DNA of 64,000 nt from Candidatus Poribacteria bacterium (GTDB lineage: Bacteria; Poribacteria; WGA-4E; WGA-3G): the NCBI GenBank assembly GCA_022824835.1, contig JAJDZB010000023.1, forward strand, positions 14,461-78,460. Reading direction: 5' to 3'. A model generated the notes under the pieces. The model was given only the letters and a program-made list of their open reading frames with translations. It did no database searches and was not told the DNA's origin. This document shows positions 8,895-20,470 of the stretch, in pieces (positions within the stretch are counted from its first letter, which is position 1; each line of letters begins with the position of its first letter). The position numbers and the translations under genes were made by a program.

Positions 8895-10723
8895 GTTTCC
8901 GATCAACCTTTCTCATAATTGTAACGCTAACGATAGTTGCAGTATGTTATTTTCTATTCTTTAACAAGCCTCTTGATGACAGTGCAAAAAGCGAGAAACC
9001 GAGGATCTTTCAAGTATACGATATACCCGCTGAAGAAATTAATAAAATCCAAATCTCTTTCTCAGATGAATCTTTTCAGAAGTTTACTATTGAGAAAAAC
9101 GATAAGAATACCTACATGTTTACAGCACCTATCAATGCACATGCAGATAACGAAAAGGTCAAGTTACTGTTAGATGATTTTCTCAATAAACGCATCAGGA
9201 AAACCCTTAACGTATCAGATTATGTGCAATACGGTTTAGGTGAACCTACGATAACTATTCAACTATGGAAAAACCCATCAAGTGAGCCGAAAACCTTTTT
9301 TATTGGACAAAGAGGTGTAAATTTTTCTGTCTATATTAAAGAGAAGTCAGAAAAGCATGTATTTCAGATTGAATCCAGTGCGCTTGATGACCTGTCAAAG
9401 TCCCCATCAGATTTACGTGATAAAGCAATATTTACGTATGATCCTGACGCAATCACAGAAATCAAGTTTGAAAAACCTGAACAGATACACTGTATGAAAG
9501 AGGGTGATAGATGGGTCATGACACTTCCACTCTCGGAAAACGCTGATACACAGAGAATTCAACACATACTTAGTGAGTTAAGTAAAGCACAAGTCCTCTC
9601 GTTTGAAGCAGATGGTGAAGATGTAGCACCCTTGTTAGATAAATACGGGTTAAAGAAACCACGTATCGTGTTTTCACTAAGTGATGAGAAAACGACTTAC
9701 GGACTCAAAATAGGATCAGATGACCGTTCTGCTGAAAATTATGAGGGGGCATATAGAAAAGTCTATGCACAGTCAATACATCAAGGTGGCATATTTAAAA
9801 TATCAGGCAAAATTGTCCAAATTCTAAACAGATCAGTATTTGATTTACGTGATAAACGCTTGATTGATTTTCAGAGAACGGATACAACGAAGTTTGAAAT
9901 TCAATATGGGACACAGAAGTTAGAAGGCATCAAACTGGGTCAGGATAGATGGCAACTCAACACCCCGAAAAAACGCAAAGCAGATCCAGTAGCTGTTAGC
10001 GATCTACTTTTCGGTGTAGACTCACTGAAAGCTGTAACGTTTGTATCGGACGGAACAAATAAGCTGAGAAAGTTTGGTTTGGACCCACCAAGAATGCAGG
10101 TCTCATTCACGGTACAGGGGGAAAATGAGCCTGCTGTTCTTCTCATCGGAAAGAATACAAATAACGACACAGTATACGTGAAAGCAAAAAACAGTGAAAA
10201 AGTCGCCACTGTTAAACGGAACCTAATAGATAATATCTTTAAAGGTGCTGCATGGCTAAGAGATAAAAAAATATTTCATTTTAGTATTGAAGATCCAACC
10301 CGTTTAACAGTAAAATATAATGACGAAAAAGAACCGGATAAAAGTCTCAATTTCACATGTCAACGTCTCGGTAGTGAGTGGAGAATAACTTCACCCGTTA
10401 AAGAAAATGCAAACAGTGCAGCAGTCAATGAAATTCTATACGAAATGATTGACCTAAATGCGGATGAGTTTATTTCTGGAACATTGATGGATAACAAAAA
10501 CAGACTTACAAGTGATAAAACAGGTCTGAATTCACCAGTCATACAAATTACAGTAGAATTGAAGTCAAAAAACTTACAATCAATTCAGATAGGCAAAGCT
10601 GATTCAACGGGACGTTATCATGCACGTCTAAGCAATGATCCGAATCAGATTTTCATGATTAACTCAGAAGTAATTCCGAGATTAAAAGCACAACTTAATT
10701 GGCTTCGCACGACAGAGAATTAA
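8891..10723 (+). CDS. DUF4340-type repeat protein, third gene of the GldF/GldG-like operon
   Basis: GTG at 8891 overlaps the gldG-like TGA and is preceded by GGAGG. The product has an N-terminal transmembrane helix and repeated ~90 aa beta-rich modules, the usual architecture found after GldG. Confidence 0.5.
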   Translation: MSFRSTFLIIVTLTIVAVCYFLFFNKPLDDSAKSEKPRIFQVYDIPAEEINKIQISFSDESFQKFTIEKNDKNTYMFTAPINAHADNEKVKLLLDDFLNKRIRKTLNVSDYVQYGLGEPTITIQLWKNPSSEPKTFFIGQRGVNFSVYIKEKSEKHVFQIESSALDDLSKSPSDLRDKAIFTYDPDAITEIKFEKPEQIHCMKEGDRWVMTLPLSENADTQRIQHILSELSKAQVLSFEADGEDVAPLLDKYGLKKPRIVFSLSDEKTTYGLKIGSDDRSAENYEGAYRKVYAQSIHQGGIFKISGKIVQILNRSVFDLRDKRLIDFQRTDTTKFEIQYGTQKLEGIKLGQDRWQLNTPKKRKADPVAVSDLLFGVDSLKAVTFVSDGTNKLRKFGLDPPRMQVSFTVQGENEPAVLLIGKNTNNDTVYVKAKNSEKVATVKRNLIDNIFKGAAWLRDKKIFHFSIEDPTRLTVKYNDEKEPDKSLNFTCQRLGSEWRITSPVKENANSAAVNEILYEMIDLNADEFISGTLMDNKNRLTSDKTGLNSPVIQITVELKSKNLQSIQIGKADSTGRYHARLSNDPNQIFMINSEVIPRLKAQLNWLRTTEN

Positions 10724-10941
10724 ATACTTGGAAGTCAACTACCCTAAGCTAAAGCATAGGGCTTGTGTATAGCGTAGCCAAACGTTCCCTGCATAGGACT
10801 AAACGGTTTTCTACAGTAAAATATCGGGTATTCTGGGCGTGGCAGCCCAGAGTATGTTTCGGATGCTCCCCAAGTCCGATTCCGCTACGAATACCTGATC
10901 TGGATGGGGAAACATACAACCCGTAAGGGAGATTACAAACT
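10724..10941 (+). ncRNA. Candidate omega-RNA (OMEGA guide-RNA scaffold) of the downstream IsrB
   Basis: 218 nt non-coding leader directly upstream of, and abutting, the isrB start. It contains local hairpins such as CTGGGC-gtggca-GCCCAG. The position and size fit IscB/IsrB omega-RNAs. There is no covariance evidence available. Confidence 0.4.
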
Positions 10942-11967
10942 GTGTTTGTTCCAGTAAAAAGTAAGTCTGGCAATCAAGTAATGCCGACAAATCCTAACAA
11001 AGCAGGTGTGCTAATCAAAAAAGGATTAGCAACACCTTATTGGTCTAACGGTATCTTTTGCATTCGGCTCAATTACGAAACAGAAGAATACACACAGGAT
11101 ATAGCAGTAGGTGTTGATCCTGGTTCAAAGAAAGAAGGATTTACAGTAAAGTCTGCATCTCATACCTATCTGAATGTGCAAGCAGATGCCCATAACAAGG
11201 TTGGTGACAAGATTGAAAAGCGACGTGAACTTCGTAGAAGTAGACGTACCCGTAAATGCCCGAATCGTAAGAATAAGACTAACCGTCTTGCTAACAGAGA
11301 ACGCATCCCAGCAGGCACACGTGCAAGATGGGATTGGAAACTACGAATACTTGAATGGCTGTCAAACCTTTATCCTATCAGCCATGTATGTGTAGAAGAT
11401 ATTAAGGCAGGGACACATAAAGGTGCTAAAAAGTGGAATCAAAGTTTTAGTCCCCTTGAAGTTGGTAAGCAATGGTTCTATACTGGAATCAAAAAACGGT
11501 GGAAGTTGCTGACACTACAAGGATGGGAAACAAAAGAGATTAGAGATAGATTGGGTCTCAAGAAGTCCAATAAGAAGTTATCAGAAACGTTTGATACACA
11601 TTGTGTTGATAGTTGGTGCTTAGCACATCATACAGTTGGTGGCGATAGTATTCCTGATAACACAGATATATTCTGCGTTTCACCTATACCGATTAAGCGT
11701 AGATGTTTGCATAGAAAGCAAGAATCTAAGGGCAGAAGACGGACTAGATATGGTGGCACTATCTTAAAGGATGGATTAGTCAAAAACACATTGGTCAAAC
11801 ATATTAGATATGGACTGACTCGACTGTCAGGTGTTAATGCCAAAGGTTTATTTTCACTTTACGATATGTGCGGGCAACGATTAACGACCAGTGCCAAACG
11901 CACAGATTTTCAAGTGCTTACACGTATGAATTTTCAATATAGGAGCGGGCATTCCTCCCCGTGCTAA
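10942..11967 (+). CDS. isrB: IsrB, the HNH-less IscB-family RuvC-like nuclease (OMEGA effector)
   Basis: The N-terminal PLMP-like domain is VFVPVKSKSGNQVMPTNPNKAGVLIKKGLA. RuvC-I is IAVGVDPGSKKEGFTV. The Arg-rich bridge helix RRELRRSRRTRKCPNRK carries the RRXRR motif. RuvC-II is HVCVEDIKAG and RuvC-III is THCVDSWCLAHH. There is no CxxC...HH HNH insert. It is 341 aa with a GTG start. Confidence 0.75.
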   Translation: MFVPVKSKSGNQVMPTNPNKAGVLIKKGLATPYWSNGIFCIRLNYETEEYTQDIAVGVDPGSKKEGFTVKSASHTYLNVQADAHNKVGDKIEKRRELRRSRRTRKCPNRKNKTNRLANRERIPAGTRARWDWKLRILEWLSNLYPISHVCVEDIKAGTHKGAKKWNQSFSPLEVGKQWFYTGIKKRWKLLTLQGWETKEIRDRLGLKKSNKKLSETFDTHCVDSWCLAHHTVGGDSIPDNTDIFCVSPIPIKRRCLHRKQESKGRRRTRYGGTILKDGLVKNTLVKHIRYGLTRLSGVNAKGLFSLYDMCGQRLTTSAKRTDFQVLTRMNFQYRSGHSSPC

Positions 11968-12004
11968 AGCAGCGAGGTCTCCTGCCCGAAGACTGATAAA
12001 TACC

Positions 12005-13207
12005 ATGACGACTTATATTCTTGTCATTACTTACATTCTCTTTATTCTTGAAATGTTGTTGGTTAGTCCATCTTTTTTCTATACACGACGTGAACGGAAA
12101 ACCAATAGACCCGCATATACGCCAAAAGTAGCGATTATTGCACCTCACTACGGTTGGGATAACGAAACAGCTGAACATGTAAAAACCCTACTTGATCAGG
12201 ATTACGAAGGAGACTTTACAATACACTTCGTTACACACGATAAAGTCGGTACGGGGTACGATGTGTCATATCCACATTTACAAGAAATTGCAGAAGATGT
12301 CCACAACGCGGATGTCCAATTAGCACCTAATATCGTTGATAACAACCTACCACGTTCACAGAAAGTTCAGAACCTTATCACAGTGATAGAGAGTTTACCC
12401 GAAGATGTAGAAGTAATTGCATTTGTAGATGCTGATGTAGCAATTCAGATCGACTGGCTACGTCTTCTCGTGACACCACTCCAAGACGACACAATTGGCG
12501 CGACCGTTGGCGGCAGATTCTATTTTCCACAAACATGGAATTTCGCATCACTCGTTGAAGCCACTTGGGTCAATTTTCAGATGTCATTACAACGAGACCA
12601 TTGGCTCACAATGGTATGGGGTGGTTCTAACGCTTTTCGTCGTGAACTACTTGAAAAAGGACAAATACTGGAACGTTGGGAACATGCCACAATCGAAGAT
12701 CTAAACACAACCCGTGCAGTGCGAGATGTCAAGCTTAAAATTCATTTTGTACCCGATTGTGTTGCAGTCACCAGGACTACAAATCGCACATGGAAACAGA
12801 TACTTGAATTCACAAATAGACAGATGATAATGACGAAGCACATGGGGTTATGGGCACAATGGTTCGGTAGTTTATTTCTCTTCTTACCAAAAGCAGTTCT
12901 GATTTTTGGCGCGATTCCATTTATTGGCATACAACCGGGACTACTACCCGTTGTTTTCATACCCTTTCTTGAGGCGATGAGTTTCGGTCTCTGTAGTCGA
13001 AATCTCCCCAAGTGGCTTCGAGACATGCCAAGGGTTCAGGACACACTCCGCATTAGTAAATACGCTGCACCATTTGGCATTATCCTTGCCGGTATCAACG
13101 CATTTTATGCAATATTTCAACGAAAAATCGTATGGGGAGGCGTCGAATACAAGATTCTGTCTGCTACGACATGCAGAGTATTAGGTCCAGTGAAAAAGGT
13201 TGAATAG
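12005..13207 (+). CDS. Membrane-bound family-2 glycosyltransferase (GT2/GT21-like)
   Basis: DxD-type motif FVDADV. Transmembrane helices at both the N- and C-termini. General similarity to ceramide-glucosyltransferase-like and hopanoid-associated GT2 enzymes. Confidence 0.55.
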   Translation: MTTYILVITYILFILEMLLVSPSFFYTRRERKTNRPAYTPKVAIIAPHYGWDNETAEHVKTLLDQDYEGDFTIHFVTHDKVGTGYDVSYPHLQEIAEDVHNADVQLAPNIVDNNLPRSQKVQNLITVIESLPEDVEVIAFVDADVAIQIDWLRLLVTPLQDDTIGATVGGRFYFPQTWNFASLVEATWVNFQMSLQRDHWLTMVWGGSNAFRRELLEKGQILERWEHATIEDLNTTRAVRDVKLKIHFVPDCVAVTRTTNRTWKQILEFTNRQMIMTKHMGLWAQWFGSLFLFLPKAVLIFGAIPFIGIQPGLLPVVFIPFLEAMSFGLCSRNLPKWLRDMPRVQDTLRISKYAAPFGIILAGINAFYAIFQRKIVWGGVEYKILSATTCRVLGPVKKVE

Positions 13208-19145: not shown

Positions 19146-20297
19146 ATGATGCAAATGCAGACACTTTTTGATGATTGTGTAACGGAAATTCCTCTCACAC
19201 AAAGCATAAAATACACTGGTTCCAAACTAAAACTCATTCCACAAATACTTGAACTCACCAGAAAAGTTGATGCAAAGACAATATTAGATGGTTTCTCAGG
19301 TACAACCCGTGTCTCACAAGCATTTGCAAAACTTGGCTATAACGTGATATGTAACGACATCTCCGCGTGGTCAAACGTACTTGGCACTTGCTACCTTCTT
19401 AATACAAAATCGAGATCTGAATACCAACCTCTAATTGACCATCTAAACGCACTTCCTCCAATTGATGGATGGTTCACAAAACACTATGGCGGAGACACTA
19501 ACGGCGGTTCAGCAATCCAAACAGATGGACTGAAAAAACCGTGGCAAAGACATAATACCCGCAAATTAGATGCTGTCCGACAAGAAATTGAAAATCTGAA
19601 ACTTGATAGTGTTGAAAAAGCCGTAGCACTCACAAGCTTAATTCTGGCATTGGATCGCGTTGACAGTACACTCGGTCATTTTTCCGCTTACCTTAAAGAT
19701 TGGTCCCCGCGTTCCTACAAAGAGCTTGTACTTGAAGTGCCAATGGTATTTAGGTCAGAAGGTCATCATGAAATCTATCAATCCGACATTTTTGAACTCG
19801 TTCCACAAGTATCAGTAGACCTTGCCTATTTTGATCCACCCTACGGTTCAAACAACGAAAAGATGCCACCCTCACGTGTAAGATACGCGGCATACTACCA
19901 TATCTGGAAAAGTATTATCCTTTATGATAAACCGCAACTCTTCGGTAAAGCAAAACGTCGTAAGGATTCCTCCGATCAATCCTCCGCATCTGTCTTTGAG
20001 GAATTTCGTAGAAATGCAGATGGACGTTTCATCGCAGTTGAAGCAATCGAAAAGCTAATTAAGATGACACAAGCACGTTGGATTCTTCTGTCATACAGTT
20101 CCGGTGGACGTGCCACTGCTGAGGAACTAAACACAGTCATGCAATCAAACGGTAAACTCCTTGCTATTACTGAGATAAATTACAAGCGAAATGTTATGGG
20201 AAATATGAAATGGTCAAATGAATGGACACCTTCCACTACAAAACCAAATCAAGAATACCTTTTTCTACTTAAAAAGAAATGTAGCACATTCTGTTAG
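19146..20297 (+). CDS. D12-class N6-adenine DNA methyltransferase (Dam/DpnM-like) with a C-terminal extension
   Basis: N-terminal KYTGSK, the SAM-binding region LDGFSGTTRVSQ and the catalytic DPPY (AYFDPPYGSNN). The last codons, CSTFC*, are encoded by a copy of the dispersed GTAGCACATTCTGTTAGATTG repeat. Confidence 0.75.
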   Translation: MMQMQTLFDDCVTEIPLTQSIKYTGSKLKLIPQILELTRKVDAKTILDGFSGTTRVSQAFAKLGYNVICNDISAWSNVLGTCYLLNTKSRSEYQPLIDHLNALPPIDGWFTKHYGGDTNGGSAIQTDGLKKPWQRHNTRKLDAVRQEIENLKLDSVEKAVALTSLILALDRVDSTLGHFSAYLKDWSPRSYKELVLEVPMVFRSEGHHEIYQSDIFELVPQVSVDLAYFDPPYGSNNEKMPPSRVRYAAYYHIWKSIILYDKPQLFGKAKRRKDSSDQSSASVFEEFRRNADGRFIAVEAIEKLIKMTQARWILLSYSSGGRATAEELNTVMQSNGKLLAITEINYKRNVMGNMKWSNEWTPSTTKPNQEYLFLLKKKCSTFC

Positions 20298-20470
20298 ATT
20301 GCGCTTCTTTATTCCTCTTATCCTGAAAATCCTGGTCCAGATTGTGCTTCTTTAAATCTCTTATCCTGGTCAAAATCCTATAATCCTGAAAATCCTGGTC
20401 CAGATTGTGCTTCTTTGTAGCCTATCAAAGTCATATAATGATCCTGAAAACCCTTCCATGTCCTCCACGT
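20298..20470. repeat. ATCCTG-rich low-complexity repeat tract
   Basis: Units such as CTCTTATCCTGGTCAAAATCCTATAATCCTGAAAATCCTGGTCCAGATTGTGCTTCTTT repeat. The same family recurs at 22946-23130 and 32440-32530. Confidence 0.8.

Follow-up and report, generated by a model that had tools for sequence, protein, structure and literature searches.

The locus considered here raises the question of whether a short open reading frame (ORF) and the noncoding leader in front of it specify an RNA-guided nuclease system, and what kind of mobile element, if any, carries them. The two lie in a stretch of 64,000 nucleotides from a Candidatus Poribacteria bacterium (contig JAJDZB010000023.1), which we refer to as the window. 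A sequence-only reading had taken the 341-aa product of the ORF for IsrB, an HNH-less Cas9 ancestor, and had proposed that it forms an intact pair with an omega-RNA encoded at 10724-10941, on a non-autonomous IS200/605-type passenger between two operons. The evidence set out below leads us to conclude, with a probability of roughly 0.88, that positions 10734-11995 are a non-autonomous element of the IS200/IS605 superfamily, of the ISC1/IsrB type, encoding an HNH-less IsrB and its omega-RNA in Candidatus Poribacteria. The family was already described between 2016 and 2022, and the window element is a further example of it, not a new kind of system.

An IscB-family protein without HNH

The ORF and all the motifs quoted for it in the sequence-only reading are present, at positions conserved in the family. 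The protein consists of a PLMP domain, RuvC-I (GVDPG, with D59), an Arg-rich bridge helix (R94-R104, RRELRRSRRTRK), RuvC-II (VCVEDI, with E152), a short linker replacing HNH, RuvC-III (HCVDS, with H220 and D223), and a C-terminal target-adjacent motif (TAM)-interaction (TI) domain; the PLMP-type N-terminus reads VMP in the window copy, a minor deviation (L13V). RRXRR (PF14239) was the sole Pfam family found (E 5e-28, residues 3-160), with no HNH family in the 341 residues at E ≤ 1, and because only 67 residues part E152 from H220, there is no room for an HNH domain. The NCBIfam IscB equivalog ("guided_IscB") aligned residues 5-160 with model positions 3-162 of 314 and scored 86 bits, below its cut-off of 175; a match over half of the model would be the result expected of the N-terminal half of an IscB lacking HNH.

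When all PDB sequences were searched with phmmer, the best match was DtIsrB of Desulfovirgula thermocuniculi (8DMB; E 1.1e-30), collinear over residues 3-274, the N-terminal region pairing with DtIsrB from its residue 8 on, while IscBs matched only over the first ~110-120 residues. A profile of 31 family members aligned to DtIsrB at E 1.9e-41 over residues 3-285 with few gaps, pairing GVDPG with AVDPG, VCVEDI with IVTEDV, and THCVDS with THANDA. D59, E152, H220, and D223 thereby align with the D, E, H, and D of DtIsrB; this alignment, together with the Pfam search, had been put forward as the check on the RuvC residues and on the absence of HNH, and it confirmed both. In a 33-sequence alignment reaching down to 29% identity, E152 was invariant, and D59, H220, D223, and the bridge-helix arginines were at least 90% conserved.

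Structure prediction gave the same ranking. An AlphaFold model computed from 31 close homologues (alignment A2) had a mean predicted local distance difference test (pLDDT) score of 39.9 and was discarded; a diverse alignment (A3), used instead, gave a model with a pLDDT of 85.5 and a predicted template modeling (TM) score of 0.81, in which the N-domain (four strands and a helix) exceeded a pLDDT of 90 and the C-terminal beta domain reached about 90. The top Foldseek match was 8dmb_P (E 1.3e-26, TM scores 0.77/0.79, 347 aligned columns) over the whole length. IscB structures ranked lower, with TM scores of 0.64-0.69 for six full-length IscB chains and 0.58 for 9k2z and 9lir_D, and RuvC resolvases covered the core only, about a quarter of the model. 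By its predicted fold, the C-terminal domain would be an IsrB-like TI domain, and it is this fold, with the conservation of the flank described below, that suggests a role for it in reading the TAM. We conclude that the protein is an IsrB: its RuvC nuclease is intact, lacks HNH, and folds as in IsrB, DtIsrB being its best match in both sequence and structure.

A separate observation concerns the C-terminal domain of distant homologues, which share an R-x-x-Q motif (e.g., GKRLTQSAK). Its spacing recalls the TAM-reading residues R323 and Q326 of DtIsrB, a correspondence that is a guess.

A covarying RNA that overlaps the isrB start

The leader of isrB is a conserved, double-pseudoknotted RNA with the topology of the group-A IsrB omega-RNAs. 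Covariation in an alignment of 54 distinct copies (A1) supports the scaffold given in Table 1, composed of the stems (S) and stem-loops (SL) S1 (10737-10740 with 10805-10808), SL1, SL2, S2, S3 (10823-10831 with 10891-10899), SL4, SL5 (10859-10864 with 10874-10879), a hairpin containing the Shine-Dalgarno sequence (SD hairpin), and a start-codon hairpin. RNAalifold found 33 pairs in A1, 19 of them with compensatory changes, and a scan of column pairs added long-range partners to give a model of 63 pairs in 12 helices. Across the 54 copies, 94.6% of the cells of this model are paired, and 32 of the 63 pairs have changed on both sides. None of 500 shuffles reached the observed values; slid controls paired at 32-42%, a contrast that is flattered by the partial derivation of the model from the same alignment, although the margin is large and shared by all 12 helices. 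In the window copy, 62 of the 63 pairs are retained, among the best in the family. Folded as a single sequence, its leader was unconvincing by itself (z -1.47), and the structural case rests on covariation.

Both pseudoknots have paired columns at which the bases were exchanged. Columns 48 and 144 of the SL2-SL4 helix are G-C in 24 copies and A-U in 29 (100% canonical), and columns 174 and 208 of the SL5-linker helix are U-A in 28 and A-U in 24, the family also containing the form CCCCU/AGGGG. Several G-U wobbles are fixed (columns 166-176, U-G in 54/54; columns 42-58, G-U in 46; columns 126-199, G-U in 33 and G-C in 21), which fits a plus-strand RNA and neither a DNA hairpin nor a minus-strand transcript.

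At its 3' end, the RNA runs into the gene. The start codon occupies the loop and the first stem base of a conserved hairpin, ACAAAC-NNN-GUUUGU, in which most of the variation is confined to one side, the 3' arm being coding sequence. The PLMP domain of DtIsrB touches the terminal hairpin and the SD (PMC9581776), a contact which, by analogy, the SD and start-codon hairpins would fit. A structured omega-RNA overlapping the ORF start had thus been correctly anticipated, but not its limits: the scaffold begins at 10734 and runs to about 10949, and bases 10724-10733 are host flank.

Comparison with covariance models, another suggestion of the sequence-only reading, had a mixed outcome. Rfam HEARO (RF02033) matched the window at full length over 10734-10917, starting at element base 1, but with 24 bits (E 0.029) against a gathering threshold of 83; the placement was the same in 6 of 9 other copies (23.6-36.4 bits). 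Judged by these matches, the leader RNA is related to HEARO and is not a member by the Rfam criterion.

Two candidate helices were set aside. Pairing of columns 79-82 with the linker after the pseudoknot was rejected by eye, with A-C mismatches in several A1 copies, and columns 4-7 with 79-82 are supported instead; the first helix of HEARO (GUCAACUA with UAG--GAC) depends on bases specific to the window copy and was not adopted for the family. Two copies (L005:2768-3019 and L078:2769-3019) carry a 25-nt insertion, CTTTGCGAATGCCACACGCGCATTCGC, at A1 columns 93-117, which can form a hairpin. It lies between S2 and S3, at the SL3 position of some published IsrB omega-RNAs, where the other copies have 7 unpaired bases.

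Ends, target site, and spread of the element

A scan of one genome per species found at least 324 relatives of the element in Poribacteria, of which 80 loci, all from Poribacteria metagenome-assembled genomes (MAGs), were fetched for detailed comparison. In blastn searches of 10400-12300 against these loci, similarity set in at 10732-10734 and ended at 11992-12003 in almost every copy, so that a 1.26-kb unit with sharp boundaries recurs throughout the set. The flanks were unrelated between copies on both sides, and the alignments place the sharp left boundary at GTCAAYWACCC. Looking for other genomic copies, as had been advised, thus defined the ends of the element and showed the flank next to the scaffold to be variable.

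The same insertion site was found empty in three related lineages (four contigs, L083-L086), which have GT2 orthologues 95%, 90%, and 84% identical to that of the window and the surrounding gene cluster, and lack the isrB gene. Their junction is ...GAATTAAATATTTGGA(T/A)|ATGAATACCATG..., in short TTGGA(T/A)|ATGAATACCATG, that is, an empty site TTGGA(T/A)|ATGA, compared to ...GAATTAAATACTTGGAA|GTCAAC...GAAGACTG|ATAAATACCATG... in the window, where the left side reads TTGGAA|GTCAAC. Because the window could be compared with these empty sites, the ends can be set exactly at 10734 and 11995, and the element is seen to have inserted at N|ATGA without a target-site duplication. The empty sites also bear out its description as a non-autonomous IS200/605-type passenger. 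It does lie between the DUF4340 and GT2 genes, as had been said, but not in a gap between operons: the insertion point, 10 nt past the DUF4340 stop codon, is in a 10-nt spacer within one conserved co-directional cluster, ordered ABC-2 / GldG-like / DUF4340 / GT2 / MsrB / radical-SAM in relatives.

Table 1. Features of the isrB element and its flanks (window coordinates).
Feature	Position	Strand	Description	Basis
Whole mobile element	10734-11995	+	1,262 bp, ISC1/IsrB-type, non-autonomous IS200/IS605 family	blastn boundaries and empty sites
Guide-equivalent host flank	10714-10733	+	AGAGAATTAAATACTTGGAA; overlaps DUF4340 stop codon 10721-10723	inferred
Omega-RNA scaffold	10734-10949	+	about 216 nt	covariation in 54 distinct copies (A1)
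First stem-loop of RNA	10742-10761	+	CCCTAAGC-TAAA-GCATAGGG	4/7 pairs with compensatory changes
SL2-SL4 loop-loop pseudoknot	10777-10780 with 10840-10843	+	GCCA with UGGC	helix 97.7% paired
SL5-linker pseudoknot	10868-10872 with 10905-10909	+	CCCCA with UGGGG, linker before SD hairpin	helix 99.3% paired
SD hairpin	10920-10929	+	CCC-GUAA-GGG; contains Shine-Dalgarno GGGAG (10927-10931)	3/4 pairs compensatory
Start-codon hairpin	10935-10949	+	ACAAAC-UGU-GUUUGU; encloses GTG (10942-10944)	92.6% paired
isrB gene	10942-11967	+	341 aa; GTG start preceded by GGGAG	ORF and homology
Structured other end (left end, TnpA convention)	11942-11995	+	terminal sequence GAAGACTG	conserved in 76 aligned copies
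TAM / transposase target-site position	11996-11999	+	ATAA here; ATGA in all four empty sites	

Both ends are structured. As DNA, the first stem-loop of the RNA (10742-10761) is a subterminal imperfect palindrome 8 nt from the boundary. This is the right end, not the left, by the TnpA convention, since the omega-RNA end of IscB transposons is called the right end (Meers et al., bioRxiv 10.1101/2023.03.14.532601). At the other end, an outer stem of CGGGCA (11946-11951) with TGCCCG (11983-11988) covaries in 76 aligned copies (CGGGCA/TGCCCG, CGGTGT/ACACCG, and CGGGCT/AGCCCG), and the TAAA loop of an inner imperfect hairpin (11957-11977) contains the isrB stop codon. A CCCC..-TAAA-..GGGG hairpin interrupted by a mismatch is thus found on either side, 8 nt and 18 nt inside the respective boundaries. 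The left and right hairpins are more alike within an element (identity 0.83) than between elements (0.71), showing that the two ends co-vary.

The last codons of isrB (..RSGHSSPC, window 11942-11967) are encoded by the stems of these transposon-end hairpins, with the TAA stop in the loop. What constrains this C-terminal tail is probably the structure of the DNA and not the function of the protein; C-termini of the form ..SSP. were also seen in some distant homologues (P0269, P0388).

A right-end profile found the element with nhmmer at E 1.8e-22 as its one match in the window, and neither a second copy nor a stand-alone omega-RNA was detected in the 64 kb by exact or near-exact seeds, nhmmer with both ends, or tblastn. 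The term "solo" is therefore right for the window but not for the phylum, in which the element is highly multicopy, with at least 9-10 copies in single chromosomes. The G+C content of the element is host-like (0.39-0.43), and its G+C profile gave no compositional sign of recent foreign origin.

The spread of the family was also followed at the protein level. Homologues at E<1e-5 numbered 3,334 in a word-indexed search; the top 120 were all 74-100% identical, and the few with a named source came from Candidatus Poribacteria. An identical protein is present on an ENA metagenome scaffold. A library of representatives at 50% identity gave 1,160 matches at E ≤ 1e-3, of which 149 reached E ≤ 1e-30, and many matches were full-length proteins of 330-350 aa; to judge from these sequence matches, IsrB-type proteins are common, and the Poribacteria group is one subfamily among them. 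Copies 93-96% identical to the window copy sit at other loci, among them a 93%-identical one between unrelated genes in a different context, and one protein occurs in identical form behind two distinct left flanks. The subfamily was thus active recently, forming a large IsrB expansion in Poribacteria. In four loci (L053:3-901, L044 near 5778, L029 near 4659, and L074 near 4333), the main copy has, within 3 kb, either another, partial copy or another right-end motif with TGA after it, which suggests clustered or nested insertions.

No transposase was found close by, in agreement with the sequence-only reading. TnpA was absent among the Pfam-annotated genes of the 23.9-kb contig (from the contig end, ~6.8 kb upstream of isrB, to 10 kb downstream) and from a rough motif scan of 647 kb of window and loci, a weak test. 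The constant length of the unit leaves no space for a tnpA gene in any of the 80 copies.

In IscB and IsrB systems, the guide is encoded beyond the transposon boundary, on the 5' side of the scaffold (PMC9581776; bioRxiv 10.1101/2023.03.14.532601), and its synthesis needs transcription entering from outside the element (same sources). The arrangement here corresponds: the flank, unrelated between copies and made up in the window of the 3' end of the DUF4340 gene and the spacer, directly abuts the conserved scaffold start, and by analogy 10714-10733 would be the 5' guide of the omega-RNA. Among 52 scorable copies, the upstream ORF was on the same strand in 42 and on the opposite strand in 10 (p 9e-6), and the same co-orientation bias has been reported for IscB (bioRxiv 10.1101/2023.03.14.532601). 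On the other side, A/G-TGA abuts the element end in nearly all copies other than that of the window. NTGA and NTG TAMs have been measured for IsrBs (PMC9581776), ISC1-1_MA has an N|ATGA target and a 5'-GTCA terminus (PMC4810608), and the Geobacillus stearothermophilus IscB has the TAM TTCAT (bioRxiv 10.1101/2023.03.14.532601), of which the ATGAA seen here is the reverse complement.

The target motif often coincides with the start codon of a host gene in the same orientation as the element. In 42 of 78 copies, the ATG or GTG within it begins an ORF 80 codons or longer, compared to 18.6% of control A/G-TGA sites (p 3e-12), some copies being orthologous insertions and the counts thus not fully independent. 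A stricter set of 65 copies with rebuilt empty sites contained 32 such long ORFs, 31 of them with no more than 41 open codons upstream, and the left flank of the rebuilt sites ends in a Shine-Dalgarno sequence and spacer (e.g., AGGAGGAATAAA|ATGA). In four of eight ORFs tested, a Pfam match begins within the first 2-13 residues and at position 1 or 2 of the model, namely, in ribosomal protein S10 (L042), an aconitase-family protein (L079), a sulfatase (L008), and a phosphorylase via DUF3417 (L071). About half of the family copies sit exactly between the ribosome-binding site and the start codon of a host gene, and for the window element, too, the site had been the start codon annotated for GT2.

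Use of an ATGA target, with insertions inside genes being purged, may account for this pattern. We consider it possible, though on balance doubtful, that docking at start codons is an adaptation, by which the element captures the host promoter and 5' untranslated region for its guide-bearing omega-RNA while its other end restores translation of the displaced gene. The terminal ...CCCGAAGA(N2-6) would then act as a weak ribosome-binding site, or translation would be coupled to the isrB stop ~30-37 nt upstream, and the window copy would have docked at the GT2 start and lost the ATG/TAM later. Such an adaptation, if real, would explain why insertions before genes such as that for ribosomal protein S10 are tolerated. 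There is no mention of the start-codon pattern in the ISC paper (PMC4810608), nor was one found in a full-text literature search.

State of the window copy, alternatives, and known systems

By analogy with characterized systems, the element would work as follows. Transcription would enter from the upstream host operon and yield an omega-RNA whose 5' guide is copied from the host flank (about 10714-10733); IsrB would bind this RNA, and the complex would recognize guide-matching DNA followed by an NTGA-type TAM, i.e., the empty or excised site. Excision would join the guide-matching flank to the TAM, which is the homing logic of OMEGA systems. Nicking of the non-target strand by IsrB would favor restoration or spread of the element by recombination, and movement would need a Y1 TnpA supplied in trans.

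Several observations count against this account. The window copy has a GTG start, against ATG in nearly all of the remaining 53 in the alignment, and its TAM position reads ATAA instead of A/G-TGA. The C-terminal 84 residues alone gave only chance matches to PDB sequences and none to DtIsrB, and the Poribacteria family has R313-L-T-T316 (window ~11878-11889), with T316 in place of the Q of distant relatives, although the flanks of the family retain the fourth TAM base (A). The HEARO score of the leader stays below the gathering threshold. The 20-nt length of the guide was borrowed from DtIsrB, and the 5' end and length of 10714-10733 are thus assumed. A scan of 10300-12300 for promoters and terminators gave no promoter-like site beyond the level of shuffled sequence and no terminator-like one. 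Finally, no TnpA was found near the element, while the rest of the genome was not searched for one acting in trans, and the case for current mobility comes from copy polymorphism only.

Some of these points concern the individual copy. Given that all empty sites have ATGA, its TAM decayed to ATAA after insertion. The same G-to-A change removed the ATG called as the GT2 start in relatives (403-404 aa), and the GT2 ORF of the window (400 aa) starts at 12005, 9 nt downstream, and lacks an evident ribosome-binding site. The ATAA flank probably blocks both excision by TnpA and self-homing at this locus. The element could accordingly be an immobilized relic, whose RNA-guided activity is unused and whose protein and RNA are intact only for lack of time to decay, and the GTG start and eight departures from positions at least 90% conserved (including K89D and E182G) can be read in the same way. 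We regard this as unlikely: most of the eight changes are conservative and their number falls in the range seen across the family (1-15), the ORF is not truncated, the RNA has lost a single pair, closely similar copies at other loci attest to recent activity of the subfamily, and a bad TAM at its own site leaves action in trans on other sites possible. "Intact", as the sequence-only reading had put it, thus applies to the protein and the RNA but not to the homing site; the copy is probably a functional predicted RNA-protein pair in an element unable to excise from, or home to, its own site.

Loss of the TAM would also fix the element in place, as might be expected of an IsrB domesticated as a guide-RNA-directed regulator or repair factor for the GldG/DUF4340/GT2 cluster, analogous to nuclease-dead TnpB derivatives, and the gene is embedded in, and co-directional with, that conserved cluster. 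Such a role is very improbable, given that all four catalytic residues are kept, that close relatives of the host have no insertion at this site, and that the hundreds of family copies occupy unrelated contexts, with nothing that ties the family to this cluster. That the protein is an HNH-containing IscB or simply a RuvC-like resolvase, and the leader no more than a transposon-end DNA hairpin region, is refuted, since what speaks for it (the best NCBIfam model being "guided_IscB", RuvC resolvases among the fold matches, and a first leader hairpin that doubles as a transposon-end palindrome) gives way to the partial, sub-threshold IscB match, the short E152-H220 interval without any HNH family, the lower TM scores of IscBs than of IsrB, the quarter coverage by RuvC structures, and ~200 nt of covarying helices, with two pseudoknots and fixed G-U pairs, beyond a TnpA-binding hairpin.

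As to the wider surroundings, a gene for a D12-class N6-adenine methyltransferase lies ~8 kb downstream of the element (window ~19150-20300; L087:15047-16189), next to several ORFs without a Pfam match and two DUF2283 genes. This region could be a restriction-modification or other defense or mobile cluster.

The mobile, IsrB-encoding element supported by these comparisons leaves the understanding of how such systems work unchanged, start-codon docking being the one point that may lead somewhere new. It adds a well-defined pair of IsrB and omega-RNA from a lineage known only by MAGs, with the exact ends, the natural target (the empty site), an A/G-TGA TAM deduced from the flanks, and a covariation-backed RNA structure in hand, and it offers a clean natural example of the guide, TAM, and empty-site logic of OMEGA systems. 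For research into compact nickases, the ~216-nt scaffold is a useful starting point, with natural variants in the hundreds to draw on for design.

Among known systems, DtIsrB (8DMB; Hirano et al. 2022, PMC9581776) shares the domain order, with PLMP, a split RuvC with the Arg-rich bridge helix, no HNH, and a C-terminal TI domain, and is of similar size (about 350 aa, compared to 341 aa here). Its omega-RNA likewise lies 5' of the ORF, with two pseudoknots and an SD-containing hairpin, and its TAM is of the NTGA type. However, identity to DtIsrB in the structural alignment is only 27%, the scaffold is shorter here (about 216 nt versus 262 nt), most copies lack SL3, and the pseudoknots are wired differently, being SL2-SL4 and SL5-linker (group A) here and SL2-SL5 and SL4-linker (group B) in DtIsrB. 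The hosts differ as well, a thermophile for DtIsrB and a MAG-only Poribacteria lineage for the window element.

Group-A IsrB omega-RNAs are defined by the SL2-SL4 pseudoknot, with SL5 pairing with the S2/SL7 linker (PMC9581776). The same wiring as in CsIsrB, K2IsrB, and BbIsrB (PMC9581776) was recovered here independently from covariation, and most copies lack SL3, as in subgroup A2, and have an NTG-type TAM; this match is one of described topology alone. Two differences were noted, namely, the 6-bp start-codon hairpin, group A being described as free of pairing beyond SL7, and the hairpin insertion at the SL3 position in two copies (L005 and L078).

As a mobile element, the closest counterpart is ISC1-1_MA of Microcystis aeruginosa (Kapitonov et al. 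2016, PMC4810608), also non-autonomous, about 1.3 kb long, and encoding a Cas9 homologue. It has the same 5'-GTCA terminus, subterminal imperfect hairpins, and N|ATGA insertion without duplication, and was likewise defined by empty orthologous sites, but it belongs to another phylum, has diverged in sequence, and is present in 4 copies, compared to at least 9-10 per genome here. The IscB/HEARO systems (RF02033; OgeuIscB, 7XHT; ISGst IscB of Geobacillus stearothermophilus) are homologous in the N-terminal half of the protein and share a guide located 5' of the scaffold, a scaffold start at the right end of the transposon, the same orientation as the upstream gene, and the lack of TnpA in most copies. 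They differ from the Poribacteria element in the RNA, which scores 24-36 bits here against the HEARO threshold of 83, and in the HNH domain, in the absence of which a nickase would be expected here, not a double-strand nuclease.

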